A DNA stretch of 64,000 nucleotides. Origin: Microthyrium microscopicum (taxonomy: Eukaryota). Within the stretch, counting starts at the first letter, position 1. Each line of letters starts with the position of its first letter. A program made the position numbers and the translations under genes. Location of the stretch: assembly GCA_010405405.1 (NCBI GenBank), contig MU004235.1:510538-574537 (forward strand), in the 5' to 3' direction. The notes beneath the pieces were generated by a model. That model saw nothing but the letters and a program-made list of their open reading frames with translations, was not told where the DNA came from and searched no databases. This document shows, piece after piece, positions 1-20,973 of this stretch.

Positions 1-157
1 ATCCTTCTTCTTTATTACCTAGAGCTATAAGGACTCTACTAAGCTATTTATATTTATAATAGGTCATTATTAGTTAACCTAACTAATAACGCTTTATCCT
101 ACGTAGATATATCCTATTAGTAGTTATCTTAAACTAGAGGTATCCTAGTTCCTAATA
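1..157 (-). repeat. 3' LTR of Gypsy A (partial)
   Basis: Matches ~8512..8668 with mostly transition differences; ends CCTAATA (RIPed ...CA); followed by pyrimidine run (PPT on -). Confidence 0.9.
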
Positions 158-838
158 TTATCTCTCTTCTTAAGGCTATTTATTCTAAAGAGTATATTTA
201 AGAGTTCTAATAGATATTTCTTATACTTATATATAGCTTTTAACTATACTCTATTATACTAAGATTTAGAAGAGAATAAGGCTTAACTAAACGTATAGAA
301 TTAGGTCACTTATACCTTAGGAAGTCTTCTATAGCCTAGTAATATTCTTATTCTTTAGCTTTAGTATATTACTTATTTAAGATAGATAGCCCTCTATTTT
401 TTACTTACTCTAAATAAATAGCTCTCTATTTTTTACTAGTCTTAGGCTATAATTAACTATATTAACTTAAACTTAAAGGAGTCTAATTATTAAAATTAAA
501 TATATTAGTAAGATATTTAATAAGTAATTAATAGCTTTATTAGAGTCTTAATTAGTTAATACTAGCTTTATTAGAGCTAAATTAACCTATCTATAAATAT
601 AGTATAGTACTACTATTTATATTTAATTAGATCTTATTAAAATACTACTAGATAGTTATCCTATATATAGTATAAGTTATCTAGTTATTAAAATATATAT
701 AGCTTAACTTAGTTAGTTATACTATATTAGATATACTAAATTTATATTAGTTTAGTATAATTAGCTTTATAGTAGGTTAAGTAGCTATAACCTATATATA
801 AAACTACTCTATAAGCCTTATTTAGCTCTAGATTAGAG

Positions 839-900
839 GTATATTTTAATTTTATTTTATATTAAAAAGGGTTCTTAAAAGGGTACCCTTTATATACGTA
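839..900 (+). repeat. 62-bp direct repeat, copy 1, containing perfect palindrome AAAGGGTACCCTTT (878..891)
   Basis: Aligns without gaps to 2995..3056; 12 differences, 11 of them transitions (RIP-like). Confidence 0.9.
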
Positions 901-1210
901 TCTTAATACTTCTTATATCTAATTAAGAGTTGTTTTACGTTATTTATAGTAAGGTATTTAAATCCTTACTTAAAAGTTTAGAAACTCTAAGGTTAGGATT
1001 ATACTTTCCTATTTAGGAAGTTATAATCTTTCTAAGTACTTACTATACTACGTATAACTTCCTTTTACTATAAGAAGCTCTTATAGATCTTTACTAAGTA
1101 CTATTATATTAATACTTAGCTATTTTAGGAAGGTAGAGAGATTTAGGTATAAAATAACTCTTTTTACTCTAAATTCTCTATCTCTTATTCTTTATACTCT
1201 AAATCTTAAG

Positions 1211-2770
1211 GTAAGTAGAAATTCTATAGTTTTATAAATATATATAAAAATTACTATTACTAACCTATTTTGCGTTATAAGTCCCTCTTTAGTAATTATA
1301 AATTTTCTTTTCTTAATTATTAAGTTACTTAGTACCTTTTTAGGTTCTCTTAACCTATTTTAGTATACTTTATATCCTTCTAACCTTTAATAACTTATCT
1401 TAACTAATCTATATACTTTTAAATCTATCTTTATTTAAAGTAGGCATTAATATAAATAAGTTACTTAAAGATTCTATTAAAGGCTCTTAGGTCCTTACTA
1501 AGAACAATTTTAACTCTAGTAAGACTATAGTAACTATTCTTACTAATAATAATATTATTACGTCCTATAATAACTAAATCTTAACTACTAATATTATAGA
1601 CCTTATTAAAGTAGTCTCTAAAAATAAGATAGAGTAAGAATATGCTAATAAAAGTATTATAACCTTACTTAGCTTATTATAGTATTACTTAATCTTAAAT
1701 CCTTATTAGCGTTATATAGAGGTCTATATTATATATTTTCCTCTTTCTTTAACTACTAAACTTTACCTTATTCCTAACTTAGACTATTATTATACTTAGC
1801 AAGTTAGTTTAGATAAGTACTTTATTAAATACCTTAATATAAAGTTAACTAAAGATTATCTAAAAGTAATATCTTATTTTAGCTTATTTTATATTATATT
1901 ATACTAATATAAGTAGGTTATTCCTTATTAGAACTTTTATAATAAGGCTAAGCTTATCTTAGTTTATATTATAATTAATAAGGTTATTTATACTCTTAAG
2001 AATAATTCTTAAGATAAATTATCTTATAAGGATAAGTATATACTTTATAATAGCATTTAGTATACTTATAAATATATAGTAACTCTTTATAAGTTATAAG
2101 TACTTATTTTAACTAATTCTAGTCTAATTTTACGTATTTAGATACTAATTAGTTTATAATTATATATCTAAGTAGCTAGTAGCTAACTTCTTCCTATTAT
2201 ATTCTAGTATTACTAAGAGTAGCTTCTACGCAACCTACGTACTTATTAATTACTATATAGGTACTAAAGCTATCTAAAAGCTAGTAGATAATAGCCTTTT
2301 AAAATTAAAAAAGCGTATTATAGCTTATTTAGCTTTCTTAGGCACTAATATCTAATTCTATTCTCCTAAGCGCTTTAAGTGCTATAATATGCTATATTCC
2401 TAGCGTTAAAACTTCTACTATATTATTAGTCCTTAAGGACCTAACTTATCTTAAGTAAGTCTTTTTATATTTATAATAAGTTACTTTGCGTCTAACTATC
2501 TTATAGTAACTTACTAATATTAAGAATAATCTAAGTAGCGTTCTTATAAACTCTTAAGCGCTTCTTAAGTACTATAAGGCCTATCTTAGTACTTTTAAGC
2601 GCTAAGAGGTTAAGGCTTATATTAAAAAAACTATTAAGGCCTTCTATAAGAATAATTATACTAATAAGGACTATTCTAAGGTTAAGGCTATAGGTTCTAC
2701 TATAAAAAAGCGCAAGATAGGCTAGGTAGCTTTTTCTTAAGTTAAAATAAGGTTAGATAGGTTATCTTAA
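1211..2770 (+). pseudogene. RIP-degenerated intron-containing gene of unknown function, antisense to Gypsy A pol (boundaries approximate)
   Basis: Plus-strand intron-like units with GT / CTAAY branch / AG at 1211..1281, 1866..1916, 2134..2207 and 2455..2506. Intervening frames are broken only by occasional TAA/TAG (as expected from RIPed CAA/CAG/TGG). Frame is preserved across the 2455..2506 intron. Confidence 0.6.
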
Positions 2771-2994
2771 GTCTTTTAGAATTTAGTATTATCTATACTT
2801 AGCCTTAATTAGCTAAGTAGGGCTATTTCTTATTATATTAAGTTATTTTATATCCCTTAAGGACAAGTTAGTTAGTAGATACCCTTCTAAGACTTCCTAA
2901 GAATAAGTTCATTAATAGATACCCTTATAGAACTATTATATAGCTAATTTAATTCCTAGTTAGAAATTACTTATTCTTTTATATATTTTCTAAT

Positions 2995-3056
2995 ACGTAT
3001 TTTAATCCTATTTTACGTTATAAAGGGTTCTTAAAGGAGTACCCTTTATATATATA
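2995..3056 (+). repeat. 62-bp direct repeat, copy 2
   Basis: Ungapped match to 839..900 at offset 2156; retains GTACCCTTT core. Confidence 0.9.
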
Positions 3057-6000
3057 TAAAGACTTATTTTGCATATTATTCTAAGTTTTTTTATATATTT
3101 ACAACTTAGTAGTTTTCTTATATATTTATTATCTAGCACTATTTTTAAGTCACTTTAGATTAATTTATTATAATATACGTATAAGAGAATTAATTTAGAT
3201 TCTAATTAGTAAGAAAATTATAAAGTAACTATTCTTCTTCTTTTAAAAGCTTATCTTAAGTCTTTTAAGTCTTTTTTAGCCTTCTTAGCTATCTTTTTAG
3301 TCTTATAAGGTTAAGATCTATTAACCTATCTATAATATTATCTAAATACGTTATTTCGTATTTAATTGCTCTTCTAATTATACTTATTACTAGTACAATA
3401 CCCTTCTTAGTTAACTTTACGTAATAGCGTTTTAAAGTAGTTAAAGAAAAGTTAGCTATAGGCTTTTAAGTTAATTTAGACTTTAGGTAATCTTTCTATT
3501 TTATAAGGTAGTAGTATTTATTCCTTTTATCTACTATATGCTTTATTACCCCCTTTATATTATATATATTTAGGTCTTCTAAGTTTAAAGAATCCTATAG
3601 TAATATAGACTTCTATAGAAAGTAGAGGTTTAACTTATATAGCTTTAATAGAAAGATATAGAATATATTATAAACTTATATATTTTTTAGGAAGTTAAGC
3701 TAATAAGTATTAGCGTTTATAATCTCTATAATCTTAAAGGAGCCTATATATTTAATATTAAGCTTCTTCTTAATATAAGTAGTCTAAATATTCTTTATAT
3801 TAAGTAGGACTTAGTTATTAATATTTAAATAAATATCCTTTTTCCTTTTATTATACTAGTTAGCCTAATATAGCTATACTTTAGCTAATTTATTCCTTAT
3901 TACGTATTATAAAGATAAAATATAGTTTACTATCCTTTTAGCGTTAGGTATAATACTTTTTAATAACATTTTAGCTAATTTAGGAGTATAGAGGTTCCTT
4001 CTAGTATATATAATAAAAAGAGTAACCCTAGTTAATAAGTAAATACTATTATTATAGTTAAACTTAGCTAAACTAAGCTATCTTGCCTAATTATCCTATT
4101 CTTAATACCTATAAATCTATAGGTAGTACTTAACCTCTTAGTTTAAGTACTTTATTTAACTATTAGTTTATAAGTAGAATACTATTAAGAGCTTTCTAAA
4201 GATAGAAAGGTAATAAAGGAACGTTTTCTAATACTTAGAAATAAAGAGAAGTCCTTAATTAAATATAATAGTATAAAGTATACTATATAGGTATATAACC
4301 TTTTATAAAAAGATCTTAATAAGATCTTTTACGTTTATATTCTTTCTTATTAGGACATAGTAGACTATTTTAGTTAATTTATTAATAACTACTATAATAA
4401 AGTTATAGATTTAACTATTATAGATACTTAGAGGTAAATCTATAATAAAATCTATAGTAATATCCTTTTATAGTATTTCTAAGACTAGTAAGGCTATTAG
4501 TAACCCTTTCTAAGCCTATCTAATAGATTTATTACGTTAGTAGTTAAGATAAACTTTATAATAGTCCTTAACATCCTTCTAGATATAGTCTTAAGTATAG
4601 TAGCGCTTAATCTTCTTAAGTATCTTCTTAGACTCCTTATAACTACCCTCTATAGTATTATTATAAAACCTTTATAGAATTTTCTTCTTTTATAACTCTT
4701 CCTTAATAAAAATAAGATTTCTACTTATCTATTTAGCTTTGTTTAAGTTATTCTTAGCTAGAAGTAGTTTATTAATAGCTAAAATCTTACTAGAGCTTAT
4801 TTTTAAATACTTTTAAGTCTTAGTAGGCTTATCTTAACTCCTCTTAAGTTAGTTTATAGTAAGATACTATATATTAATACTAATATATATAATAATAGAG
4901 TTTATAAGTCTAATAGCATTAGTTTTAGCTATAGGAGTATTATTAAGCTATAACTTATTATAAAGCAAATTAAGTAATACTTCTATAGTCTTTTTCTATT
5001 CTCTTTAGCCCTCTTTAATATAGTCTAAATATCTTAAGAGTCTATTAGCTAGATTTATCTTACCTAGGTAGTACTTAATATTAAAATTATATTCTAAGAG
5101 TAAATCTACCTACCTTGTATATATTAATAATATTTTTAATATTATTTTAAGTAATTTAAGATTTATATAGTCTATTAAGACTTAAAATTAGTCTAGTAAG
5201 CCTTATAAGTACTTTCTAAATACTTTTAAGGAATCTATAATTACTAAAAACTCTTATTATAGAGTTCTATAGTAGCTCTCTAGTAGAGATAATTTTTAAG
5301 AATAGAATATAATAGGTTTCTATAGGCTATCTTAGCTCTTATTATACTATCTTTAGCTTAATATCTTATAAATTGCCCTTCTAAAGGTATTAGTCTCTAA
5401 CTATATAGAAAGTATAAAGTTAAAATAAGCTAAAATTAATATATTTATAAAAGAATCTTTTAGTTTATTAAAAGAATCTAAGGCGTCTAGTAGTAATTTA
5501 ATATTTATAGACTCCTCTTACTATAGCTTTAAGCCTTTTAGAGCCTAACCTAGTTCTTTCTAAGTTAAGGCGTTTAGTAGTATAATAATATAAAAGAATC
5601 TAGTAATAAACTAATAATAATAGTTTATAAAGCTAATAAATTCCCTTACTTAGTATATATTATATAGTTTTAGCTAATCTAAATATATATTAACTTATAA
5701 CTAATCTATAGTAGTACTATCTAGAATTATAATATAATCTAGATACTCTATACTACTAGTATAAAACTTATACTTAAATAGTTTTATATATAAATAATAC
5801 TTTATAAGTTATTATAGGACTTCTTAGATATCTTTAATATATTACTCCTTAGTTTTAAAGTAAATAAGGATATTATTAAAGTAAATAATATATATTACGT
5901 CTACTAAGCCTTTTAATACTTAGTTAATATATACTTAGAAGGCTATAAAAGTATTTATAAGTCTAAATAAGACTACTATATACTTAAATATCCTATATTT

Positions 6001-8440
6001 AGTTCTAAACGTAGTTTTCTACTTATTACTATCTTTAATACGTAAATAGTAGTAAGCTTTATATAAGTTAAGGCTAGTAAAAAACTTAGCGCCTTAAAGT
6101 CTATTTAATAACTCTTTAATAAGAGGTAATATATACTAATTCTTAATAGTAATATTATTTAGGCCTTAGTAGTCTATATAGAGTTATAATATCCTATCTT
6201 TCTTCTTTATAAAGAAGATAAGGGCTCTAGTAAAGGATCTTAACTTCTAAATCTAACCTTTTATAAAGTAAGTATCTAAGTACTTATATAGAATAACTAA
6301 CTTAGCCTCTAAAAAGCTATAAATAAGTCTATATAGTACTATAGCGCTTAGCTCTAAGTTAATCTTAAGGTCTTATAGACTATATTAGGCTAGTTTAAAT
6401 ATATCTTATTTACTAAAAGTTTTAGCAAACTATAAATACTTACTTAGAAGCTCTTTTATAGATAAATTTAAGTCTAGTAATCTAATTAGATAATTAAATA
6501 GTTAGGATAAACTATCCTAAGCTAACTTAGAGAACTTATTAGTATTTATAGTCCCTATTTTACTATAAAAGCTACTAAAAGGTTACTCCTACGTAAAAGT
6601 CTTATTCTTAAAGTCTAGAAGAGGATTCTACTTCTCTAACTAGAGTATTTCTATAATAATAGGGTAATATAAGGAGTCTATAATATAAAATAACCCTATC
6701 CTAGTTTTAAAAAGGCTATTTAAGTTAACTACTATTACTATAGCTTCTATAACTTTATAAATTTATATAAAAATACTATTTAGGTATATTATAAGTATTT
6801 TAAAAAGGAGAGTAATATAGAGCTAAAGTCTTTTAGCTAGCTTAACGTTTATAATATTAAAGTATAACTTATAATTAACTATAATATCTAAGAATAGAGC
6901 TTCTTAGCCCTTATTATTCCTTAGACTCCCTTATAGGCATATTTACTTTAACTTTAGTCTTATAAAGTCTACCTTACTAAGTAAGTTATTATTCTTAGCC
7001 CTTAATATCTCTAGGACATATATAATAATAGTCTTATAAAGCTATTTAGCGCTAGGCTAGGCTATCTTATTAATAAGAGAGGCTACTAAGTCTTAGTCTA
7101 TAACTTTATAGCCTTATCTTTCCTTTATAGCTTAGAGTATTCTATTTTAAAATAGAGTTTACTATATTTAAAGTATTTAACCTTTTTTAGGTTAGACTCT
7201 AGCAAAATATCTATATTCTAAGTTATTTTAGGCGTAGTCTATTCTACCTTACTATTCTTTAAAGAGTAGAAGGACTTTCTAGATATTCTTAGCTCTTTTA
7301 AGCCCTTCTTATACTTATATTTATCTTCTAAGGAATATAAGCATTATTTTAAGAAAGGTTATCTTAGGTTTACCTTTTTAGGAGTAGAATAGGTCTTAGC
7401 CTCTATAGAACTAAGAGTCTAGTATAAGTTAGCCTTTTTAAGGGCCTTTTTAACTATAGTAGTAGTAAACTTCTTATTAAAGAGAATCTTCTTCTATATA
7501 TTTTTAAGAAAACCCTTATAGAACTAAAAGAAGTAACCCTTTTAATTATTATACTCCTATTCCTTCTATAACTTAAAAAGGTTATTATAAAGCTCCTAAG
7601 GATGATATTAACCTAATTTAACTATCTAGAACTTCTTAAAAGTAATATATTCTTACTTTATAGGGTAACCTAAATAGCTTAGTATATAGTCTTAGACTAC
7701 TTACTATATCTTTTAGAATCCTAAGTCCTAAGACTCTTTATAGAAAATAAGATTATTTAATTCTATTTATAATAGCTCTTTCTTAAGCTAATTACGTCTA
7801 TAAATATACTAGTAGAGTTACTAATTATAAGTACTCTCCTAATAAAAAGGTTTAATAAACTTCTATTTAATATTATTAATCTAGGATATATATTCTTAGA
7901 GACTCTTCTCTTTATAAAGCTCTATCTTAGGCCTATCTTAGTTTAAAAGTCCTAAGAGGGCAAAAGCTTAGCTTAAAAGACGCTAATTAAGTCTTATTAT
8001 ATTAACTTAGCTAAAGTTCTTTAACTCTTAGGTAGTTTTAAGCTTACTAGACTAAATTACCTAAGCTTTTACTATTAGCTCTTATATCTTAAGCTCTAAC
8101 TTTTTTTTATTAATAAGCGTATTAAGTTCCTCTTTATAGTACGTTATAAAGTTATTTTAAGTCTCTCTAGGCCTAGGTAAGTTAAGATTAGCTAATTTAA
8201 TATTAGATAGGTCTAATAGACCTCTAAATATATTAGTTTAGAGCATAATAGGTACTAGTAATCTTTAGCCTAATAGTTAAGGCTACCTAAGTTCTATCTA
8301 GGCGCTAAGGTCTAAATATCTACTATTAGACATAGTTTCTAATTAAATAAAAGATAAAAATAATTTCTTTAAGTACTTAAGGGTTAAAAAGTAATTATTA
8401 TATTAAAAATAGGTTATTCTAAGTAGGTAAAGACTATAAT

Positions 8441-8668
8441 TATTACGATTTAAGTAAATACGTAAAAATAAGGATAAGAGTAATTGCTAGGAAGTTACTT
8501 AGATCCTTACAATCTCTCTTCTTTATTACCTAGAGCTATAAGGACTCTACTAAGCTATCTATATTTATAATAAGTTATTATTAGTCAACCTAACTAATAA
8601 TGCTTCATCTTATGTAAACATGTCCCATTAGTAGTTGTCTTAAACTAGAAGTGTCCTAGTTCCTAATA
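8441..8668 (-). repeat. 5' LTR of Gypsy A (~228 bp)
   Basis: Starts TATTACGA (TG>TA), ends TCCTAATA (CA>TA), forming short terminal inverted repeats; distal part matches 1..157. Confidence 0.85.
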
Positions 8669-11600
8669 ATAATATTTAAAAGTCTTTAGAACTATATTAC
8701 TAATATCTTTAAGGCTTAAGATATACTTTAAGCACTTTAGAAAGGTATTTATTTTTCCTAAACTAGTATAATCTTAAAGCTAAATAAAGAATTTAATACT
8801 TTAAGAAAGGAGTATAAATAATAAGAACTATAACTCTAGCTAACTTACTAAATATTCCTTTAAAGAGAAAGTTCCTTTTACGATAAGAATAGAATCTTTA
8901 AGAAATAGCTTATAAATACTTTTATAAACGTTACTTAAGCTTCTTGCCCTAGTACTTAAATATAGTTTACTTATTATTATATAGAAGATAAATAACTTAC
9001 TCTTTTAGAATATATTAAGAAGTATTAGACTATCTATAGTAAGAAAACTATATTAGTATTATAATCTAGTATTACTTTTACTACTATCCTTAATAAAAAG
9101 ACTTAGGAAAAGATATCTTAACCTAAGAAGACTTCCTTAAATACTAATATTTATTAACTTTCTTTAATATCTAGATTATAAAGTTCTTAGAAGAATAAAA
9201 AGATAGTTCTTTCTTACCTCTATAGTAAGACAAAATACTATAATAATTATTTCTATCTTTAACTTAATAAACGTCTAAATGAATAGTATCTTAACCCTAA
9301 AGTAGAAGTAAAAATTAAGGAAAGCCTTAAAAATTCTTAGCTTAAAGTAAAAATTAATTATATCTTTAAAATAAGTTATAATTAAGAGCGTAGTAATAAT
9401 AACTAACTACTTAAAATAATTAAATATATAAGTATTAGAATAGTAGTTATAAAAGTTATAATATCTATAGTAGTTAAGATATCTTCTAATAGAAGGTTTA
9501 TTCTTAATTCTAAAGCAAATATATATATTTATAATAATAGATCCTATTTTAAGATATATAAGAGTATTCCTAATTCTTTAATTCATAGTAAGGTCTCTTT
9601 ATAAGTTATAGGATATAGTAATATAAATATTACTATCTTAAGCTCTAAAGAATACTAAATAGTTACTCTCTATAATATTACTTATATACTTAGCTTTTAT
9701 AAGAATCTAGCTTCCTATTATAAGATAAAAGCTATAAGATATTACTAGAATGATAAAATAGGCTAAATTAGACATATTAAAATAGAAAAGCTTCTAATTA
9801 AGATTATCTCCTCTAATATTTACTTCTTCTTTAAAAATAATCTTTACTATACCTTTCTTATAATATTATTACTTCTTTATACTTCTATAGCTTCTATATC
9901 TAAATAGCACTAATAAATAGGTTATATTAGTAAAGCTATAGTATCTTACATAGAATACGCTACTAAAGATATAAAAATTACTCTAAACGTTACCTCTTCT
10001 AAAGATACTAAAAATAATAACTATTTCTATAAAATCTATATCAAAATAAAGTAAAAGAAATAGATCTCCTATTAACTAATAGATTTAGGCTTAAAGCCCT
10101 TTAAGAAGCTTTATATTAATCTAATTTAAGTTAAGAAAAGCTATAATAATAATTACTAAATTATTTACGCTTACTATACTATTATAAAGTTTTATTTATT
10201 AGAAATACTTCCTTAGAAGATATAAGAGAATTATATTTAATTCCTACGCTACGTGCTTACTATTATTAAGAATATAGATTATAAAGTAAGTAATATTAAA
10301 TATAAAGTTCTTTAAATCTATAAAAATTATAAAGCTATAATAAATAAGAAGTAGAATAATAAGATCTAGCTAAATAGTATTATTAAAGAACTATCTATAC
10401 TCTATACTACTTTATAAAATAGTCTTATAGAAGTATTAGGACAAATTCTAATATCTATTATAAAGGCACTAAAATAGTATAGTAGCCTTCTAGATATATT
10501 ATAGCTTAAACTTACTTACTTAGTAGTATATCTACTTAATAGGATCCTAAAGAAGTAGCTAAACTAGAGAATACTCTTTAAAATAGTATTTAAATAAGTG
10601 CTAGATCTCTTATTAGTCTAAATTATTAGCTTAAAAGCCTATATTTATAATCCTAATATTCTAAAGCTTAAGAAGCTTTAATCTTGCTTAATTAAAGGCT
10701 AGCTAATAGGTTATACTAGAAGTAATATCTTTAGAGTCTAGATTCTTTTAAATAATCGTATTATTAAAGCATAAAATATTATAATTAATAAAACTATTAA
10801 ATTTAATACTACTATACTTACTATAATTAATAACTAATCTACTAACGCACTCCTAGATACGCTACTTTCTTATCTTAAAATAAATGTTAGTAGTAGTATA
10901 TTTAATCTATAAGAAGCTAAATAATAGCCTAATTAAAATTAGGGAGTATAGAATACTTAATAATAAGAACAAGATAGCTATTAGACTTCTAAAAACAATT
11001 CTAATTAACCTATATTTAATAACTAGCTAATAATGCCTAATTCTATATTATTACTACTATCTTAGCCTTCTTTATAATATCTAATACTTTCTATAAGTCT
11101 ATTACCTACTTAAGATTATACTAAATTAAGAAAGAATACTTTAGAAGATCTTACTCCTATAATTTTATTAGTACTATTACTAGCTACCTTAATAACTTAC
11201 CTAAAATAGTAGTATATTACTAAGTATAAATAAGAGATCTAAGCCTTCTAAAATGTTTCTATATATGCTATAAGAAGTAGTTATATCTTATAATCCTTAA
11301 GGACTACTAATCTAGTACTCTATAAACTTTACTTCTTTACCTTATTATATTATATATTCTCTATAGCTTTAGTTTAATGCTACTATAAAAGAGATATACT
11401 AGAATTACTAAAAACGTAGTCTAAAATAATAAAATACCTTAATTAAGACTAGTATCTTTTAGCTACTAGAATTAAAATTAAAATACTTTAAGAATAAGGT
11501 ATATTTAAAGAAGTCTATACTTCTTAAACTAATAAGCTTATTCTATTCTTAAAGTAGGTATTCTTAAAGAAGTATAATTTAAATAGTTTCCTTCTTAAAT

Positions 11601-13318
11601 ATAAGGCTAGAATCTATATAAAAAGAAATCTATAGTACTAAAATTTAGAACTAAAGATTTATACTACTACTAGAGCTTATTATATATTATATATAATTCT
11701 TATACTAATAGCTACGTTTAATCTAGATCTTTACTAATTTAACGCTATAAATACCTTCTTAAATACTATTCTAGATAAAATAGTTTTAGTTTAATACCCT
11801 AAAGGCTTTAATATCCTTAGAAAGATCTTACTACTTTACTATACCTTCTACAAACTACTAAGATCTTTATTACTATAATATTAGAATATAAGAGCTATCT
11901 TCTATATAATAAAGTTTAAGCCTATTCTAAAAGACTCTTACCTTTTTAAATATATTTAGTATTCTATCTTTCTCTTTTATTATATTAATAACTTTCTCCT
12001 TCTCTTACTAAAAGCATATTAAGTAGAAGCAAATAAGATAAAATATAAACTTAGTACGTATTATACTATAAAGGATTTAGATACTCTAAAAAGCTTCCTT
12101 AATATTTAAATACTTTAAGATTAAGCTAATTAAAAGCTCTAAATCTTATAGAACTAGTATATTAATAAAATTAGTACTAAATTCTAGCTTAATATTATAA
12201 AGAAGACTAAATATGTTATTCCTATCTTAAATCTTATTAAACTTATTCTAAATAAAGAATAGGTATCTAAAGATTAGATCTACGCTTTCTAAATACGTTA
12301 TAGCTCTATAATCTACTCTATAATAGTATATAGGCTAGATATCTATTATATAGCTTCTTATTTAAGCTACTTTAACTAGAATCCTTCTAAGCTTTACTAC
12401 TATAAGATTAAGAAAACTATTCTATATTTTTAAGTAATAAAATACCTTATACTTAAGTATTATAAAACTACTAAAGTACCTACTACTAGTAAAGAAGTAT
12501 TTCTTATAGCCTATAATACTATATTTATAAATAATTAGGAGACTTAAAGATTAACCTAAGGCTTCTTATTTAACCTATTTAGAAAACCTATTAGCTAATA
12601 ATCTTTACGCTAAAAGATAGTCTTAATATCTATAATAGAAGTAGAACTTCTATCTTTCTTAAACGCTTTAAAAAAGCTAATCTTAATCTAACGCTTCTTT
12701 TTATAGCTTAAGTTTAATCCTAATATTAAAATACTAATATTAAATAATAATACCTAAATAGTAGGTATTATAATAAAGTAGGCTTAGCTTTTATCTTCTA
12801 GATTAAAATACGTTAATATATATTAGTTCTAGTTTTGTTAAGAAGTTATAAAGGGCTATATCTTTATTAAATAGATTCTTATAGGCAAGATACTAGTAGA
12901 TAGTTTAATAAAAGCTCTCTCTCTATAAGAATATAAGAAGTTTAGAAAGATACTAAATTTAGTAAATATAAAGTACTTAGTACTAGCTTAGGAAAATTCT
13001 TCCTAAAATACTATAAATACTTTTACTATTACTATAAATTACTAAATCTCCTATATTTTTATATAAGCTAAATCTCCTATACTAGGGCTACTTAATAGTA
13101 TTCTTTATTTCCTATTTTAACTAGTTTTAATATTTTAGTAGCTTAGTCTTAGAAAACTTAAAAATTAATATTTCTTTATACTTAATACTAAGTATATCTT
13201 AAAATCTATAAGTTAGAAACTTAGAGGGTATAATAGAAAGTTTGTTCTAAACCTTAGATTTATGCTAGTCCTAATCTAGGATTAGGAAGTAGAAATACTA
13301 AAATTTAGCCTCTATTAG
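8669..13318 (+). mobile_element. Ty1/Copia LTR retrotransposon (RIP-inactivated); gag-pol remainder and first part of 3' LTR
   Basis: Copia order PR-IN-RT-RH on +. Protease FILNSKANIYIYNN (~9497, cf. ILDSGA). Integrase PFKKLYINL (~10097). RT LK*VFLKKYNLNSFLLKYKARIY (~11550), FNAINTFLN and YINN (YVDD) at 11981..11992. RNaseH KYVNIY / DSLIKAL (~12826..12920). PPT ~13221..13228; LTR starts TATAATA at 13229. Confidence 0.92.
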
Positions 13319-13545
13319 TGTAACGAGCTGCGGAACTCAGAGCAAGCAGATAATTAGATTATATTCTAGAATCTACGAACGAAAGAGAGAGAGAAGAAGA
13401 TCTAGAAGAGCTATAGATCTATAAGGGAAGTAAGTCTGCTTAGTAAATCCTTAGGCGTGCTAACCCCCTTAGGTCTAGTGCGTAATCTTATAATAAGATC
13501 TCTCTTATAATATTACTATAAAGCTTATAAAGAGGAATTATTATA
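13319..13545 (-). repeat. 3' LTR of Gypsy B
   Basis: Same length as, and co-linear with, 20747..20973; begins TGTAACGA. Confidence 0.95.
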
Positions 13546-13622
13546 TAACCCTCCTCTTTAGTATAGCTCTCTAAGCTATAGATTGCTAATTATATCTACT
13601 TTCCTAATTTATTTTATTCTAA

Positions 13623-13662
13623 TCTAGTCTAGTCTAGTCTAGTCTAGTCTAGTCTAGTTTAG
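13623..13662. repeat. (TCTAG)n pentanucleotide tandem repeat in the 3' UTR of Gypsy B
   Basis: About 7 perfect TCTAG units plus a degenerate TTTAG unit. Confidence 0.9.
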
Positions 13663-16600
13663 TTTAATAAACTTTTAGTAATAAATAATATTTTAATCCT
13701 TCTATAGTATAATACTAACCTTACTAGTTATTTAGAGTATCTTAACCTTTAGCCTACTAAGGCAACTATTAAGAAGTATTAATAAACCTTAAGATATCCT
13801 TAGAATACTCTAATTCTTAAGTCCTAGTAGTCTAGTAGTTAGTAATCTTATTAATATAGGAGAATTAGTAGTATAATTATTTTACTCCTCCTAATTAGTA
13901 GGAACGCTATTAGAGTTATAATTAATACTATTACTAGTAGGCTTTAGTATTAGTAGTATCTAGGTAGGATATAAGCCTAGCTTACTAGGGTACTAAGCAT
14001 AAAACTTAGTAATAAGCTCTAGTACGTTCTTAGTAGCTATCTAATTATACTATTTAGCTTTATTATAACTAGTATACTTAATCTCGTATTATAGCTTCTT
14101 ATATTAACTAGTAAAGTAGCTATTAATAATAGCGTTAATAGACTATTTATTATTATTTATAGTCTCTTTAACGACTACTAGTAATAGGTTAGTATACTTA
14201 AGTAGCTTAGCGTTATCTATAATATAGTAAAGGACCTAAGTATAGAAGATATTATATATCTTTATAAAAGTAGAGAGATTAAGTTTATAGGTAATAATAT
14301 TAATCTTTTTAATTATATAGAAAGAGCCTATGTTTTTATCATCTAGAGTTTTTAAAGGACGTAATATAGGGTAGTTCTATATATCTAAGTAAATCTAGTT
14401 ACCTAGTAATAGGTCTAGAGCTATATAGTAATAGTAGTTAGCGTACTCTACTTACTAAGCTTATACCTAGATTAATTACTCTATTAAATAATTATATATC
14501 TTAGCGCAACCCTTCTACATTATATCTATATTAATAGCTTCCTTATTAGCTATTATAGAAATATTTATAGATTTTAGAAGGCAATATAAGGACTTAAGGC
14601 CTAATTAAGGGTTAAATCTATTTTAAGCTTTAAAAGGTATAACTTCTATAGTAGCGTTTATAGCAAAATTAATTATAAATTTAGCAAAGGATAGAAGGGC
14701 TACTTAGTTATCTTAATCCTAGTTAATAAATACGCGTAAGAACTACTTAAGTATAGTAACTAAGATTTCTATTATGCTATTAGTTTTAAAGTAAAATGCT
14801 ATACTAAAGTAGAGTATTATGCTTATATATTTATATAAGCGCTTCTAAAATATAAAGGTAAATTAGCTACTATAATCTAAAAGAATTATTAATAGCTAGC
14901 TAATAAGCTTCTATATATAGTTAATAAAGGCTAGTACTATTAAGTCTATAGAGAAGTCTAGTAGTAAAATAAAGCGTTAGGTCTATATATATTAATTAAT
15001 AACTATTATAATATACTAGTAAATTACGCCTTAGTATAAATAATAAGGTAATAAGATAGTAAAATTAATAGAGATATTAGACTATATACGTTTAGAAAGA
15101 AGGAATTATTATAAGAAGCCTTACTTCTTTTAGTAAACTAGTTTAGTAAATACGTACTTATAGCTCTTAATAAAGCTCTTAACGTTCTATAATATCTTAA
15201 GCTACTAGTAATTCTCTTATAGGTAGTAGTAAGTTATTACTACTCTGCTATAGCCTATAGCTTTATAGCTATATATACTCTATATAGCGCGATACTAAAG
15301 CTTTTCTTAAAAGATAAAGATTTAGTTATAATAAAGGATTATTTTATTAGTAGCTACTATATAGTCTCTAAGCTTAATCTACTCTTATTCTAGAGTATTA
15401 AAGGGTAAAAAGAGCTAATAGTTAGTTTTAGCGTAGTAAATAGTAATTATTATTTTATTATACTCTATTATATTTATAATATCTTATAAAAACTAGTTAC
15501 TATTAAAATTTAGAAATAAGTTATCTCCTAAGAGATTAAGTAGCTTACTCTTAGGCGTCTTATTATTACTAAGAGACTCTCTTATAGGATTAAGTAGCTT
15601 ACTTATAGGATTAGAAATATCTAACTTATTCTAAGTAATAATAGCTAGATATAGTATTAAGAAGTAGGTAGGTTTAATAAGTAATATAGCTAGCTTTACT
15701 ATATAGTTTATATTAAATTAGTATAAGAATAATAAAGGTTAGACTTATTAAGAGACATAAGGGTTATTATTACTTTATAAGATATCTTATAACTAATAGG
15801 TAAGAGTATCTACCTTTTTATTAGCTATACCTAGTTAGTACTTTATTTTAAAGTAAAACTAGAAGAGAAACTTAGTCTATCTAGCTTATTATTAAGAGAG
15901 ACGTTTTATTATTATAAACGTCTAAAGGTTATAGTAATTAGAAAATACTTAAATAGGGTTAATAGAGCTAAATAGCTTTAGTTCTTATTCTTTAAATATA
16001 TAAATAATAGCTAGAAGTTCTTTATTATAAATATTATAATTATATTCTACTAGAGTTATCTTCTTTAAGAGGTATATAATTAGATAAAGCTTCTTATTAT
16101 TACTTTTTTAAGAGAGAACTATAGTATAAACCTAATCTAAGGTATTTATTTCTAGCTATATCTTTTTAGTATAATTAAAGTAGCGTAATATCTTAGTAAA
16201 TATAAAGTTTATCTTTAGCTTCTTAAATATATATTCCTTTAGCTTATTAGGGTCTTAAGGGAAGATTACTATAGCGTTCTTTTTTATAAGTACTATTAGT
16301 AGTGCTATAGTCTTTAAATATTTAAGAATAAATTAGTAATAAAAGTTAGTAAAGCTAAGAAAAGCTTAAACGTCTTTAACTAAAAAGAAACGTTACTAGT
16401 TAACTACGTTTTAAACCTTCTCTAGGTCTATCTTAATGCCTTTAGTAGTAATAATTAGGCTAAGGTATTTAACTTATTAAGTATTAAATTTATACTTCTA
16501 GATATCTAAGTATAACCCTACTTTGCTTATTACTTTTAAGACTAGGTAGGTATAGGTAGTATAGCTAGCTTTAATATTACTAAAGACTAATAGATTATTT

Positions 16601-19600
16601 ATATAGCTTATAATAAAGTTATTAAGGTAATTAATTAGAATATAGTTAAGATAAGCTTAGAAGGTCTCTAAGGCTCTAGTAAGGCTAAAGAGTATAACTT
16701 TAAATTTATATAACTTATAGTAAGTTAAGAATATAGTCTTATATTTATTACTAGGTTTAATATAGATATATATAAAGGTAATAATAATATTAAACTTAAA
16801 GAAGTATTTTACATAATAGATATAGATTAAAGTTTTTAGTAGCTATAAAGGAACGTTATAATTTTTTTATATAATCTTATTAAGTCTATAATAATTAATA
16901 TAAACTTAAATTTCTTCTTCTAGTTTATATATATATAGTATTAGTATAGCGTAATATAATTTACTAGCCTAAACTTAATCTTAACTAAGTATCTAATTAA
17001 CGTATTATTTAATAATAAGGAATTCCTAGTAACTTAGACTATTATAGTAGCGTTTAAGGATTATAGCGTCTAGGATAATATTAATAGAGTAATCCTATTT
17101 ACTATAATATAGTATAAGTTTATTACCTAATTTTAGGTTAAAGACGTCTATATAATAGTAATATTCTTTTAGTAAGCGTTTAAGAATCTCTTTTTATAAA
17201 AGAAGAGGTTTATTATATTTCTCTTACTACTTTTTAAAGTCCTTAGATAAGATTTTACCTAAATTAATAGTAATATCTTCTTTTAGCATAGAATCTAGAT
17301 TTAGAGGTTTCTTATCTTTTTTATCTTTAAAATTATTAGGCTAGATTTTACTAAATTATTAGCCTCGTTCTAGTAGTTTAACAAAGATAGTAACGCTAAC
17401 TATAGTAACGTTTTTAAAGTAAGGATTAGTTAGGTTAACTAAATAGCCTTTATAATTTATAAAGATTAGGCAACTAGCTAGTAGGCAATATACTAAGTAG
17501 TAGTCTAAATTAAAGAGGATTTGCTTTTTTCCTCTTTTAAAAGTAACTTTATAGAGGTTAATCTATAGGTTACTAAGGATAATATCATAGCTAGCTACGT
17601 TTATAATGAAGTAGTAGATTTATTTAATATACCCTCTTAAATAGACGTTAACTATAGTAGCTTTATTAACCTTTATAATAGCCTTACTATTAGCTAATTA
17701 TATAATTTAGGGGATAGAGAGATTAATAGTAGGGATTCTATATTATTTAATAAAGTTAAGGTAAATAATTTCTATTATTCTACTTCCTATATTTATAAGG
17801 ATATTAATTTTTAAGTAGTAGCCTTACTTTAGAAAGAATATAGTATTATAAGTAGTCTACTAATTGCTTACTATAGATATAGTAGCTACTTCTTAAGGGT
17901 AAAAATTATATACTATAGAGGTAAGAAATATCTTAATAATAACTAACTTAGTATTATTAAATATAATAGGCTCTAGGAATAATACTTATTAGAGGTTAAC
18001 TTCTAAGTACTAAATAGTCTTATTAACCTTATGTTAGATTTATTCTTCTATAAGAACTAGCTTAGGGTTAGGTTTATTCTTCTTCTATTACTAATTATAT
18101 ATTTCTTATTTATTTAGCTTCTTTACGCATCTTTATAGAGAAGCTTTTAGTTTTTTGTATTATTACTATAATTATACTTGTTATAATTATCCTCTATAGT
18201 TAGAGACTAAAGAGATTAAGTAGTAATTTAATTATAAATAGTAATAAACTTTATAATAATAGCTATAATCTTTAGTTAGATTTTAGCGTCTAATAAGGCA
18301 TCTCTATCCTTATATAGTACTAAGTTATACTAATAGCTATAGCCTTTCTTTTTATACTTTATATAATAGTTGTTAGCCTTTAAGGCGTTATAGATATCTA
18401 AAGAGTAATTAAACTTAGGTTTTTATCTACTATCCTTAGCTACTAGATGATTATTATTATTATAGCTTTACAAATTAGTAGAGGAGATATATTTAATATA
18501 ATAAGTAATAGTATATAGGCTCTTAAGGAAATTTATAAATATTTTTAATTCTATAAAGAGTACTCTCTTTATAAATTTTAGGAGTAGAAAAGGACGTATT
18601 TTAATAATCTTATCTTAATTACTAAGCTTAGCTTCTTATAAATTCTTTAAGAAGTAAACTAGGAATTATTTAAGCTTCTTAGTAGGCTTTATTATAGCTT
18701 CTTAACTTTTAAGCTAGGTCTTAGTAGTAATATAGCTATCTTTAATACTATACTTATAGTTTAGATTAGACTATATCTTTACTATAGATAAATATAGGTT
18801 AGTTAACTTATAATTACTCTACTTATTAATAGTACTAAATGCTTAATCCTTTATTACTCCTTAGACAACTTAAATCTTAGAGGCTTCTATAAAATAGACT
18901 TATACATTATTATTAAGATAGTTTAGTACTTTATCTTTCTAAGCATAGTACTTCTACTTATTCTTTCTTAAGAAGAGTAAAGGCTTATTACTTTATACTT
19001 TAAGAAGAGAAGCGCTACTAATTAAGTTAAGGTTAGAGAAGAGAGTAGTTTAATATAAGTTTAGTACCCCTAGAGATATATTTAAGTTAGGTTAATCTAT
19101 ATTCTAAGCTAGAGAGGTCTAGTAGAATAGATTATTATCTACTAACTTATTATAATTAAGATAGAGATTAGTTGCCTTAGTAGCTAAGGGTTTCTTTTAA
19201 AGGGCGTTAACTTAGGCTTAAAGAATAGTAGCTTTATCTACCTTCTCTTATAAAGCCTTATAATATTTACTAATTTTATTAATGTAAGTAGTAAGTACTT
19301 TCTTAAGTAAATTATTATTATATTATAGCTTCTATACTTTTTAGTAGGTAGTTACTACTTCCTTAAGAGTAATAGTATTATCTTAAATTTATACTTTAAG
19401 GTAAGTAATCTATTTTGCGTATTTATTATTAGTTTTAGCTAAGTCTTATATTTCTTCTTAAGCTTCTAAAGCTTCTTTCTAGAGAGTATAGATTAAGTCT
19501 ATATTATAAGTATTTATATTTTACTTAATTTTAAAAAGGTAGGCTATAGTTTAAGAAGCTAATAATAAGGCGTAGAGCTATATAACTAAGTTATTTAGCG

Positions 19601-20746
19601 TAATCTCTTCTTTTAATAGACGTTCTAGGTCTATATTTAATTTAATTAGGTAGTAGAAGTAGTAGTAAAGGTTTAATTACTTTTCTTTATAATAAAGGTA
19701 TACTCCTATATCTTTTAGCTTATTGCTTTCTTTACTAGGCATTTTTTATACTTAAGTAGCTTAAAAGATTAGAAGGTTCTTATTAATAGTTAGAGTAACT
19801 AGTTAATTAAGGTTTACTACTATAGAGTAGTAAGATATTAATATAGGTAGTACTTTAAGGCCTTTAGCTTACTAGCATAGTTTTATTAGCTATTTATATA
19901 TTTTAAGAAAAAGTCTAGTATTATTATTAGGTTAGAAAGGAGCTAGCAACTAGTTATTTCCTATATTTATTTAGTTTAGTAAAGTTATTTAACTAGTATT
20001 TTAAGGAGTGTCTTCTAATACTTTAGTCTCTTTACCTTTATAGCCTTATTCTAATAGATAATTATTTTCTAACTTGTCTTTATCTTTTAATAACGCTCTT
20101 AAGTTTAGTTTTAATAATTTTAATAGTCTTAAGACGCTTTCTACTAAATCTACTACTTTCTAGGTAGTATTTAGTTATACTATATTCTAGGTATTAGGTC
20201 TATTTTAATACTTAGTATATATAGTAGAAGGGTAATATAATAGAAATAGGTAATGTAAGTATATAAGAGATAAGGATAGGTATTAATTATTAGGCTAAGT
20301 ATAAGTAATTAGAAATAGTAAGTAGGCTATATAGCTATTAACTTAGGTCTATTAGTTAGGAGCTTTATTAACTATAGTTATAAATAATAAAGAAGGGTAC
20401 TAGAAGGAAATACTTATTTATTTAGTATATTTTAATAATAAGTATATTAAGTATAATTATAAATATTTAGTAGTAGTATAGAAGATAAACTTTAGTATTT
20501 TATAGAACTAAGAATAAAAGGCAATTAATACTTAGACTATTAATAGATTAAAGAGTATTAAGAAATCTTAACGCTCTAATTAGATAAAGGGTTAATAGGG
20601 CTAATAGATTTAGTAAATCTATAAAGAATCTTTAATAGGGTCTAAGACTATGCGTATAAGATATTAATCTATATAGGTGCTTCTTTAGAAGTAAATTCTA
20701 AAGTGTATAGTATAAGTATATAGGTAGTTAAATAGTTTATAGATTA

Positions 20747-20973
20747 TATAACGAGCTATAGAACTTAGAGTAAGTAGATAATTAGATTATATTCTAGAAT
20801 CTATAAATAAAAGAAAGAGAGAAGAAGATTTAGAAGAGCTATAGATCTATAAAGGAAGTAAGTCCGCTTAGTAGATCCTTAGGCGCGCTAACCCCCCTAG
20901 GTCTAGCGCGTGATCTTGTAACAAGATCTCTCTCATAATACCGCTGTGAAGCCTATGAAGAGGAATCATTACA
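20747..20973 (-). repeat. 5' LTR of Gypsy B
   Basis: Co-linear with 13319..13545; ends TCATTACA followed by TSD ATTAG. Confidence 0.95.

Follow-up and report, generated by a model that had tools for sequence, protein, structure and literature searches.

What does a fungal Ty3/Gypsy element hold in a long interval between its pol gene and its 3' LTR, and is that interval, or any part of it, a gene? The element in question, Gypsy A, lies at the start of the 64,000-nucleotide stretch of Microthyrium microscopicum DNA analysed here (the window), of which positions 1-21000 form an AT-rich, RIP-mutated block. An initial annotation of the window had proposed that 839-3056 is a multicopy, spliced gene carried antisense inside the element. 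With a probability of about 0.6, we read positions 842-3057 as a module in the 3' internal region of a multicopy Ty3/Gypsy element that contains a RIP-inactivated protein-coding gene antisense to gag-pol. The core of the earlier proposal is upheld by period-3 signal, codon usage and low stop density, but both the extent and the introns of the gene have had to be redrawn: the well-supported coding part is 1404-2725, not the whole of 839-3056.

Gypsy A can be placed in Ty3/Gypsy by its domain order (reverse transcriptase, RNase H and integrase on one strand), its LTRs and its polypurine tract (Table 1). The Pfam matches RVT_1 (4e-7), RT_RNaseH_2 (6e-10) and SH3_Tf2-1 (2e-7) share one minus-strand frame, in agreement with the initial annotation, which had put pol on the strand opposite the proposed gene, and the reverse transcriptase-RNase H stretch matches 12 relatives with a best E of 1e-48. 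Pfam found no rve core in Gypsy A and no Chromo domain in 3235-3651; near 3560-3440 a chromodomain-like motif, YLIKxKDY...LTxKP, can be made out by eye only, with x where W is expected, and resembles what we take to be the chromodomain consensus. The element ends at 8669, where other copies have loose ends, and is at least 8.67 kb long; since weak homology extends to the left of 8512, its full LTR is longer than 160 nt.

The 3' region of Gypsy A is, as had been noted before, far longer than that of Gypsy B, a second element on the minus strand: about 3.47 kb separate the end of the SH3 domain (~3637) from the polypurine tract and LTR (158-172), compared with about 0.69 kb between the SH3 end (~14236) and the 3' LTR (13321-13543) in Gypsy B. 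The matching region measures 339-2445 nt in 28 of the 29 metagenomic relatives that have both LTRs; the reading of 5853 nt for the twenty-ninth comes from a contig whose two ends overlap. In the nine relatives with the longest 3' regions, open reading frames antisense to pol are only 70-190 aa long, as expected at 50% GC.

Table 1. Features of Gypsy A and of the module in its 3' internal region (positions in the window; LLR, codon log-odds; stops, in-frame stops per codons).
Feature	Position	Strand	Remarks
3' LTR	1..160	-	cut by window start; 89% identical to 8512-8671 (direct repeat)
Polypurine tract	158..172	-	purine run AAGAAGAGAGA just upstream of 3' LTR; read from sequence
3' spacer, non-coding	173..841	.	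LLR < 0 in all six frames
Tandem repeat in 3' spacer	369-437		period 32
Tandem repeat in 3' spacer	517-584		period 31
R1, upstream repeat copy	842..901	+	hairpin AAAGGGT..ACCCTTT, then TATATA
Block A	1001..1385	+	frame with codon start 2 mod 3, open; 3/128 stops
Exon 1 (predicted)	1404..1865	+	frame 0; LLR about +0.113 to +0.120 per codon
Spacer a, putative intron	1866..1916	+	51 nt, 0 mod 3; GTAATA...TACTAAT...TAG
Exon 2 (predicted)	1917..2092	+	frame 0; LLR +0.088 to +0.127 per codon; 3/58 stops
Spacer b, putative intron	2093..2207	+	115 nt; GTTATA...GCTAACT...CTAG; 5' end uncertain
Exon 3 (predicted)	2208..2454	+	frame 1; LLR +0.049 vs -0.18 and -0.05; 6/82 stops
Spacer c, putative intron	2455..2506	+	52 nt; GTAAGT...TCTAACT...TATAG
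Exon 4 (predicted)	2507..2725	+	frame 2; LLR +0.148; 4/73 stops; ends ...KKRKIG
Putative 3' UTR	2726..2997	+	LLR < 0 in all frames
R2, downstream repeat copy	2998..3057	+	60-nt direct repeat
gag-pol	3235..8100	-	Pfam matches; frame confirmed by RNY and LLR
Integrase SH3	3810-3637	-	Pfam
RNase H	~5475-5145	-	Pfam
Reverse transcriptase	~6207-5730	-	Pfam
5' LTR, matchable part	8512..8671	-	direct repeat with 1-160

The segment is multicopy and RIP-mutated, in line with the initial annotation. Within 839-3056 the TA/AT ratio is 1.79 and the (CA+TG)/(AC+GT) ratio 0.077, against 0.70 and 1.29 in 21500-64000 (the RIP threshold for TA/AT is 0.89 as quoted in PMC8365987). Between 2470 and 2791 contigs per DNA run fall on 1-9000 at 80% likeness or more, and in one run (X1) 1533 of the 1568 difference classes are transitions; the three DNA runs are one sample, possibly the source of the assembly, and so do not count as independent support. 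Contig depth summed over 901-3000 amounts to 0.65-0.83 times the value for 3601-7200, a figure that is not a copy number, and it shows no step at the module borders 842 and 3057. Pieces of other copies cover 1664-1957, which takes in Spacer a, and 1936-2300, which takes in Spacer b, with 0 gaps and with the 12-15% divergence also seen in pieces of pol; two of the spacers are thus kept in other copies of the element. A transition-blind word search of 1-3400 against 1-21500 returned only the LTR pair and the 60-nt repeat, and no other copy.

The case for a gene comes from the plus strand, opposite pol, where four blocks in frames 0, 0, 1 and 2 make up the coding part of about 367 codons. We scored 2082 windows across 21 kb with RNY, a purine/pyrimidine period-3 measure that is blind to RIP. 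The highest value of all, 0.47, falls at 1383-1712, a second peak of 0.35 falls at 2492-2761, and apart from these two stretches scores of at least 0.25 are confined to the coding frames of three retroelements. In codon usage the plus-strand blocks agree with the RIPed pol genes. A codon log-odds score trained on the RIPed coding frames of the same three retroelements in the window put sense above antisense in all three held-out control regions, and 70-codon windows of 0.10 or more occurred only in the elements' coding frames, in some in-register antisense frames and in the supported plus frames. The model frame has stops at 18 of its 367 codons (4.9%), compared with 68 of 857 (7.9%) in the true pol frame, and the other plus frames carry 2 to 4 times more stops than the model frame. 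The three independent measures (RNY phase, codon log-odds and stops) agree on the frame of each block. With 18 in-frame stops the gene is dead in this copy; all of them are TAA or TAG, the type that RIP makes from CAA, CAG or TGG. The initial annotation had drawn attention to frames broken only by TAA or TAG, but this is trivial here, as TGA accounts for 0 of the 236 plus-strand stop triplets in 839-3056 and for 8 of 2529 in 1-21000.

Could such signals arise where there is no gene, with frames, periodicity and codon bias as by-products of a RIP-skewed, T-rich composition and of short repeats, and with introns that are chance motifs? The strict intron motif does occur at chance density, there are 28 merged stretches with no more than 7 stops per 130 codons, several of them antisense to pol, the codon score of Block A is negative, and no homologue was found. 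We nevertheless regard this as improbable, because the period-3 score at 1383-1712 lies above all of 1000 shuffles of the region (95th percentile 0.333, maximum 0.45), because the three measures pick the same frame in each block, and because the spliced-path score of the plus strand, 37.5, is above 200 Markov simulations (mean 9.4, maximum 21.8) and above antisense tiles (8-27), real gag-pol tiles scoring 27-59. We found no tandem repeat over 1383-1712 that could explain its periodicity, and a tandem-repeat origin was rejected on that ground. A different objection is that the plus-strand signal is the in-register antisense shadow of a third ORF (env-like or other) in the sense orientation, on the minus strand. 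Frames that lie antisense and in register to genuine genes are likewise open and periodic, the minus frame of a Copia-like element going down to 2 stops per 130 codons, and exon 4 contains a single stop in the minus frame but 4 in the plus frame. The minus frame, however, has 14 stops where the plus frame has 6 (1420-1865) and 17 where it has 3 (1001-1385), the codon log-odds favour the plus strand in all four blocks (minus values +0.023, +0.069, -0.077 and +0.037), minus-strand windows of the region all stay below 0.10, the spliced path on that strand has a score of 16.5, within the antisense range, and three frameshifts would be needed, all of which makes a sense-strand ORF very improbable.

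The exon-intron model was obtained by dynamic programming on one RIPed copy and, having been chosen from among 398 candidate introns, can overfit. Removal of 1866-1916, 2093-2207 and 2455-2506 leaves 1101 nt, a multiple of three, and the spacer lengths of 51, 115 and 52 nt give exactly the observed frame changes from 0 to 0, 0 to 1 and 1 to 2. As criteria for fungal introns we used a GT...AG unit with a 5' site GTRNGY, a branch CTRAY lying 10-40 nt ahead of YAG, and a span of about 45-120 nt. Spacer c matches this strict motif, its length of 1 mod 3 fits the change from frame 1 to frame 2, and its codon score is negative in both exon frames; it has the appearance of a well-formed, textbook fungal-type intron. 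Spacers a and b have poor 5' splice sites, with a branch-like motif and YAG present in both, and negative codon scores in all frames; Spacer a (GC 0.14), which has frame 0 on both sides, was picked by the model. The four GT...AG units listed in the initial annotation (1211-1281, 1866-1916, 2134-2207 and 2455-2506) are present in the sequence, but the strict motif GTRNGY..CTRAY..YAG occurs 9 times on the plus and 6 times on the minus strand in 21 kb, 2 of them in the region, which is chance density. Two of the four, 1866-1916 and 2455-2506, fit the frames. The unit 1211-1281 (71 nt), which does not fit the frames on its two sides, was rejected as an intron, because in frame 2 the reading passes through it with a single stop and the periodicity carries on, and 2134-2207 needs its 5' end moved to 2093, because the change from frame 0 to frame 1 requires a length of 1 mod 3, which 115 nt provides and 74 nt does not. 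When the four units are spliced out as first proposed and the phase is carried through, the reading of this copy runs into 60 stops over 491 codons, and its length cannot be divided by three. The peptides quoted in support of the proposal are indeed the frame-1 and frame-2 translations of 2209-2454 and 2507-2725.

The blocks differ in how clearly they stand out. In exon 1, 6 of 154 codons are stops, as opposed to 20 and 28 stops in the other frames (Markov P = 0.0003 to 0.002), and exon 3 is the weakest block, with frame 2 also open over 2340-2456. Exon 4 holds an imperfect 21-nt repeat (2.4 copies, 2555-2604) and has its stop, TAG, at 2723-2725. The start codon is unidentifiable because RIP turns ATG into ATA. 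Upstream, the other plus frames of Block A have 17 and 14 stops (Markov P = 0.002 to 0.012) and its codon score is negative; it is possibly an upstream exon or 5' UTR, and its coding status is uncertain. One run guessed to be RNA has no contig on the stretch.

Searches with the coding segment returned no relatives. In six-frame Pfam searches of 1-8700 the segment is blank at E up to 0.1, and single blocks gave nothing at E up to 10 besides sub-threshold noise. A phmmer search with 1386-2132 against 1.84 billion representatives gave 0 matches, while the control, RIPed pol, still matches at 1e-48, and two word-indexed searches with 2339-2758 and 974-1384, confined to proteins of near length, were empty. 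The blocks had 0 tblastn matches in 79 related metagenomic Gypsy loci, in which the integrase control had 83; gag and the chromodomain region also had 0 matches in these loci, so this null result does not speak against the blocks having come from a gag-like sequence. Within the remainder of the window, tblastn gave composition-driven matches only, with a best E of 5e-4 without composition correction.

A feature absent from the initial annotation bears on how the gene came to lie in the element: 839-3056 is bounded exactly by the two copies of a 60-nt direct repeat, R1 and R2, which are identical at 51 of 60 positions, differ by transitions at 8 of the other 9, and were nearly identical before RIP. 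No target-site duplication is visible in the 5 nt next to R1 and R2 and, as read from the sequence, no PBS or PPT adjoins them; a nested LTR element was rejected for these reasons. Each of the three runs has one contig in which 3061, 4 nt after R2, is joined to 6313. None of the three joints listed skips 842-3057, and none of the 18 loose ends listed (there are 324 more) falls at 842 or 3057.

The module could therefore be mere passenger DNA, a foreign piece (842-3057) that entered a master copy in inverted orientation and was amplified passively, with no role in the element; its source would be a transduced host gene with introns or a small mobile unit with 60-nt terminal direct repeats. The exact bracketing by near-identical repeats speaks for such an origin, as do the contigs that join 3061 to 6313, the presence of introns, which are typical of host genes and not of retroelement genes, and the comparison with related elements, 0 of 28 of which have so long a 3' region and none of which has an exon homologue. 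We think it possible but doubtful. Besides the missing target-site duplication, PBS and PPT, and the borders free of depth steps and of listed loose ends, an un-RIPed parent gene was not found among the 1.84 billion representatives, although RIPed pol still matches its relatives at 1e-48, and the depth and divergence of the module equal those of the neighbouring integrase region, which implies that it is as old as the spread of the family. A separate and unlikely reading gives the repeats themselves a function: the gene would be a lineage-specific, intron-bearing one, unrelated to the brtn and plant antisense ORFs compared below, in a self-contained cassette with the two 60-nt hairpin repeats as control elements and as template-switching sites in reverse transcription. 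If this were true, a retrotransposon family could acquire, drop or swap a spliced gene in a single piece, and the module would be a fungal retroelement-borne gene cassette, perhaps a regulator of the element or of host silencing.

The most likely reading of the locus is that it preserves an antisense accessory gene, dead in this copy, located between pol and the 3' LTR. Its coding part would extend over four exons, from about 1404 to 2725, with three short intron-like spacers between them and with 1001-1385 maybe a further exon upstream. The gene would have a promoter of its own and be transcribed counter to the genomic RNA of the element, in which its introns would lie antisense; such introns would not be spliced before reverse transcription, so that each new copy would inherit the gene with its introns. 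The product may serve the element as an accessory or regulatory protein, like those described for Boty (brtn), Grande, RIRE2 and Retand. Antisense accessory genes are known from a few plant lineages and one fungal family, as far as our searches found. A further case from fungi, with introns and apparently no relation to the first, would demonstrate that genes of this type have originated repeatedly and that a spliced gene, placed antisense, can be carried along by a retroelement without change. Repeats, with any genes they contain, are masked ahead of annotation, and RIP afterwards wipes such genes out; a period-3 test and a RIP-trained codon score can recover them from one dead copy. The interest of this copy itself is limited, as it is inactive and no relatives of it are known.

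An antisense accessory gene is not a new concept for fungi, given brtn in Boty (PMC8365987, PMC7264820), and passengers of this kind are rare but already described. Our literature search found no fungal antisense case besides brtn (Zhao et al. 2011, Virology 417:248, as cited in PMC8365987, PMC7264820, PMC4227169 and PMC5987419; labelled 'brtn-106' in PMC4227169). As these papers describe it, Boty is, like Gypsy A, a fungal Ty3/Gypsy element, its integrase end being of the chromodomain type, as that of Gypsy A may be, and brtn, like the gene proposed here, is antisense to gag-pol, lies between pol and the 3' LTR, has an orphan product without an assigned function and is absent from standard genome annotation (PMC8365987). 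The gene in Gypsy A, set against brtn by description only, looks multi-exonic, with about 360 residues or more, and the empty searches with 1386-2132, 2339-2758 and 974-1384 of protein sets that ought to include BRTN argue weakly against close relatedness to BRTN. In plants, antisense ORFs of the 3' region (aORF-3R) are described for maize Grande1, rice RIRE2, Silene Retand and Phaseolus PvRetro13 (PMC7264820, PMC11963269). The coding part of Gypsy A takes the same position, between the end of pol (~3235) and the polypurine tract (158-172), on the strand opposite gag-pol. The plant elements are said to share with Gypsy A a long region between pol and the 3' LTR (2.9-6.6 kb in Retand) that contains tandem repeats; antisense coding regions are described in most of the plant copies, and the Grande antisense gene has its own promoter and a nuclear product (as cited in PMC11963269). 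They are reported to be non-chromovirus lineages of plants, unlike Gypsy A, a putative chromovirus; the Retand antisense protein has a TRP28 domain (PF04195; PMC7264820, PMC11963269), whereas in the gene here Pfam finds neither Transposase_28 (PF04195) nor any other domain; and the word 'intron' is absent from the main text of PMC11963269, whereas the gene here seems to be spliced. A more distant parallel is offered by the antisense genes of deltaretroviruses, HBZ of HTLV-1 and APH-2 of HTLV-2 (as cited in PMC11963269), which likewise occupy the 3' part of their elements on the strand opposing the genomic RNA and for which a regulatory role has been proposed; as these belong to animal retroviruses, are unrelated in sequence and are transcribed from the 3' LTR, the likeness is one of analogy only.

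The segment at 842-3057, in the 3' region of the minus-strand Ty3/Gypsy element Gypsy A, is most readily interpreted (at a probability of about 0.6) as carrying one copy, inactivated by RIP, of an accessory gene with introns that belongs to a Gypsy family and lies on the plus strand, antisense to gag-pol. GC content is 21-28% in window 1-21000 versus 40-54% from 21000 on. RIP marks are strong in 839-3056 (TA/AT 1.79, (CA+TG)/(AC+GT) 0.077); in 21500-64000 the indices are 0.70 and 1.29. The isochore border is sharp, GC at about 21000 climbing from 0.26 to reach 0.41-0.50 in the space of 1 kb, and lies directly past the Gypsy B 5' LTR, with normal RIP indices beyond. With stop codons translated as X in all frame readings, one minus-strand frame of 1-8700 matched the Pfam families RVT_1, RT_RNaseH_2, RT_RNaseH, and SH3_Tf2-1, in the domain order expected for Ty3/Gypsy pol, and the remaining frames gave no Pfam matches. 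Pfam found no chromodomain in Gypsy A; a chromodomain-like motif was spotted by eye against what we take to be the chromodomain consensus. Gypsy B gave RNase H and SH3 matches on the minus strand and has no counterpart of the 842-3057 module or its flanking 60-nt repeat. The Pol_BBD match of the Copia-like element (E 0.0023) is under the Pfam cut-off, and its coding signals occupy a plus frame (codon start 2 mod 3) over about 9200-12500.

Features of the RIP-affected block (window coordinates)
Feature	Coordinates	Strand	Details
60-nt direct repeat	842-901 (R1), 2998-3057 (R2)		51/60 identical; 8/9 differences are transitions
Spacer a	1866-1916	plus	51 nt; dynamic-programming gene model; GC 14%
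Spacer b	2093-2207	plus	115 nt; dynamic-programming gene model
Spacer c	2455-2506	plus	52 nt; dynamic-programming gene model
Gypsy A LTRs	1-160, 8512-8671	minus	89% identical; left LTR truncated by window start
Copia-like element, third RIPed retroelement	8671-13320	plus	Pol_BBD match at about 9500-9730
Gypsy B	13321-20971	minus	LTRs 13321-13543 and 20749-20971, 223 nt, 87% identical

The long 3' region of Gypsy A is real. As the initial annotation had observed, it far exceeds that of Gypsy B: about 3.47 kb separate the SH3 end (about 3637) from the polypurine tract and LTR (158-172), versus about 0.69 kb from the integrase SH3 domain to the 3' LTR in Gypsy B. A metagenome scan with alignment of RT relatives yielded 29 elements having both LTRs and the pol C-terminus, in which the equivalent distance is 339-2445 nt, apart from a single outlier of 5853 nt on a contig with two overlapping ends. 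The five closest RT relatives (P0001-P0005, from metagenome assemblies) are 85-88% identical among themselves and carry substitutions at conserved RT positions (R to W, G to R, P to S), looking as if they were lightly RIP-mutated copies themselves. Two short tandem arrays, 369-437 (32 nt x 2.2) and 517-584 (31 nt x 2.2), sit in the non-coding spacer between module and polypurine tract.

RIP makes only transitions and therefore leaves the purine/pyrimidine sequence untouched. We scored period-3 structure in 60-codon windows by subtracting the purine value of codon position 3 from that of position 1, which recovered the known Gypsy A pol frame over 3600-7200. Across 21 kb, windows of at least 0.25 fall in the coding frames of the three retroelements, in 1383-1712 (0.47, the top of 2082 windows), in 2492-2761 (0.35), and nowhere else. 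No tandem repeat underlies the 1383-1712 signal; 2507-2725 holds a 21-nt repeat of 2.4 copies. A codon log-odds table, trained by contrasting the three elements' RIPed coding frames with their other frames, told sense from in-register antisense in all three held-out regions. It gives plus-strand values per codon of +0.120 (1420-1865), +0.088 (1917-2133), +0.049 (2208-2454), and +0.148 (2507-2725), and is negative in all frames of the spacers 168-838 and 2726-3056. Seventy-codon windows of at least 0.10 are confined to the elements' coding frames, some in-register antisense of those, and the candidate-gene plus frames. Stop counts concur: read in frame 0, 1420-1865 contains 6 stops over 148 codons, compared with 19 and 28 in the two remaining plus frames and 14 in its minus-strand complement; for reference, 96 stops interrupt the 1186 codons of the true pol frame. 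Low stop density has P = 0.0003 to 0.002 over 1404-1865 in Markov simulations, and P = 0.002 to 0.012 over 1001-1385 (3 stops in 128 codons), a block whose codon score is negative and which could be either a UTR or an upstream exon of hydrophobic character.

Along the candidate gene the favored plus-strand frame runs 0, 0, 1, 2. A dynamic-programming gene model, which could switch frame only at GT...AG units between 40 and 130 nt long, placed spacers a-c, each scoring negatively in every exon frame, and ends directly ahead of the TAG at 2723-2725. Its 367 codons include 18 in-frame stops (11 TAA, 7 TAG), or 4.9%, versus 7.9% in pol from RT to SH3. Spacer c has complete fungal-type intron signals (GTAAGT, TCTAACT, TATAG) and the right length class; in a and b the branch-like and 3' signals are present, but the 5' sites are poor. 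Within putative intron c, 2461-2505 resembles the Gypsy A LTR stretches 44-88 and 8555-8599 (73-78% over 45 nt, including an 18-nt exact run), a likeness that might be coincidental given the TA-rich composition or mark a true LTR-derived piece. The initial annotation had proposed four introns here; the model chose two of them (1866-1916 and 2455-2506), and the others misfit the frames. Unit 1211-1281 precedes the supported coding part, and frame 2 continues straight across it; 2134-2207 is of the wrong length class, sharing its 3' end with spacer b. When all four are spliced out with phase carried, the resulting 491 codons include 60 stops, and the total length does not divide by three. Stops limited to TAA and TAG, taken earlier as a sign of a gene, characterize all frames of this DNA, since TG is lost to RIP (TGA is absent from the plus strand of 839-3056 and makes up 8 of 2529 stop triplets across 21 kb). 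The earlier observation is confirmed in part, and its interpretation supported in part.

That no gene is present seems unlikely. In favor of that reading, the intron-like units once thought notable are not enriched, the strict motif GTRNGY..CTRAY..YAG occurring 9 times on the plus and 6 times on the minus strand of 21 kb, 2 of them within the region. Against it, period-3 scores from 1000 shufflings of the region peaked at 0.45, with 0.333 as the 95th percentile, below the 0.47 of 1383-1712. On the plus strand the local path reaches a score of 37.5; 200 Markov simulations averaged 9.4 with a maximum of 21.8, and 1.5-kb tiles scored 27-59 for real gag-pol and 8-27 for antisense strands. A sense-strand ORF3 is very improbable: the minus-strand path score is 16.5, and in-register minus log-odds over the four blocks are +0.023, +0.069, -0.077, and +0.037.

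That the module is a captured gene or foreign unit carried along passively is a doubtful but more serious alternative, and it bears on the 60-nt repeat, which could be a captured-unit border, a promoter or terminator element, or a template-switching site. No further copy of the repeat occurs anywhere in the window and no target-site duplication was seen at the bracket. Both copies fold to one common hairpin with modest z-scores (-0.9 and -2.5); R1 has a 14-nt palindrome centered on GGTACC, and the minus strand of the repeat has AATAAA-like runs.

Contigs of three DNA runs (X1-X3, one sample, possibly the source of the assembly) were matched to window 1-9000 with a minimum likeness of 80%. The segment is multicopy, as initially proposed: 2470-2791 contigs per run matched, and depth summed across 901-3000 amounts to 0.65-0.83 times the 3601-7200 value, without a change in level at either 842 or 3057. 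Transitions account for 1533 of the 1568 difference classes in X1. Sequence from other copies spans 1664-1957 and 1936-2300 gap-free, so these copies keep spacers a and b, and it diverges by 12-15%, like pol pieces; the frame structure is accordingly older than the spread of the family. In each run, a single contig passes directly from 3061 into 6313 and leaves out 3251 nt comprising integrase, RNase H, and part of RT; the junction begins 4 nt past R2, its shorter side is just 24 letters, and it possibly represents a family member derived by deletion.

For the favored reading, an antisense accessory gene, no Pfam family, protein, or related Gypsy locus matched the coding blocks. In control searches, 12 relatives (E down to 1e-48) were recovered with the RT-RNase H stretch, which is RIPed to an equal degree, and integrase gives 83 matches in the related Gypsy loci; the product would therefore be an orphan or one never annotated. 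Genes within transposable elements tend to be omitted from annotation, as exemplified by brtn, the antisense gene of Boty, which is reported missing from the current B05.10 annotation (PMC8365987). Antisense accessory genes between pol and the 3' LTR are a kind already known from plants and Boty: additional antisense ORFs are described there in maize Grande1, rice RIRE2, Silene Retand, and Phaseolus PvRetro13 (PMC7264820; PMC11963269), and in fungi brtn is that of the Boty elements found in Botrytis and Sclerotinia (PMC7264820; PMC8365987). The anatomy of Gypsy A fits this kind, and the likeness to brtn is one of anatomy. Retand has a TRP28 domain, whereas the Gypsy A candidate does not. The main text of PMC11963269 makes no mention of introns; relative to the cases described in these sources, the Gypsy A gene is set apart by its apparent introns and its flanking 60-nt repeat.
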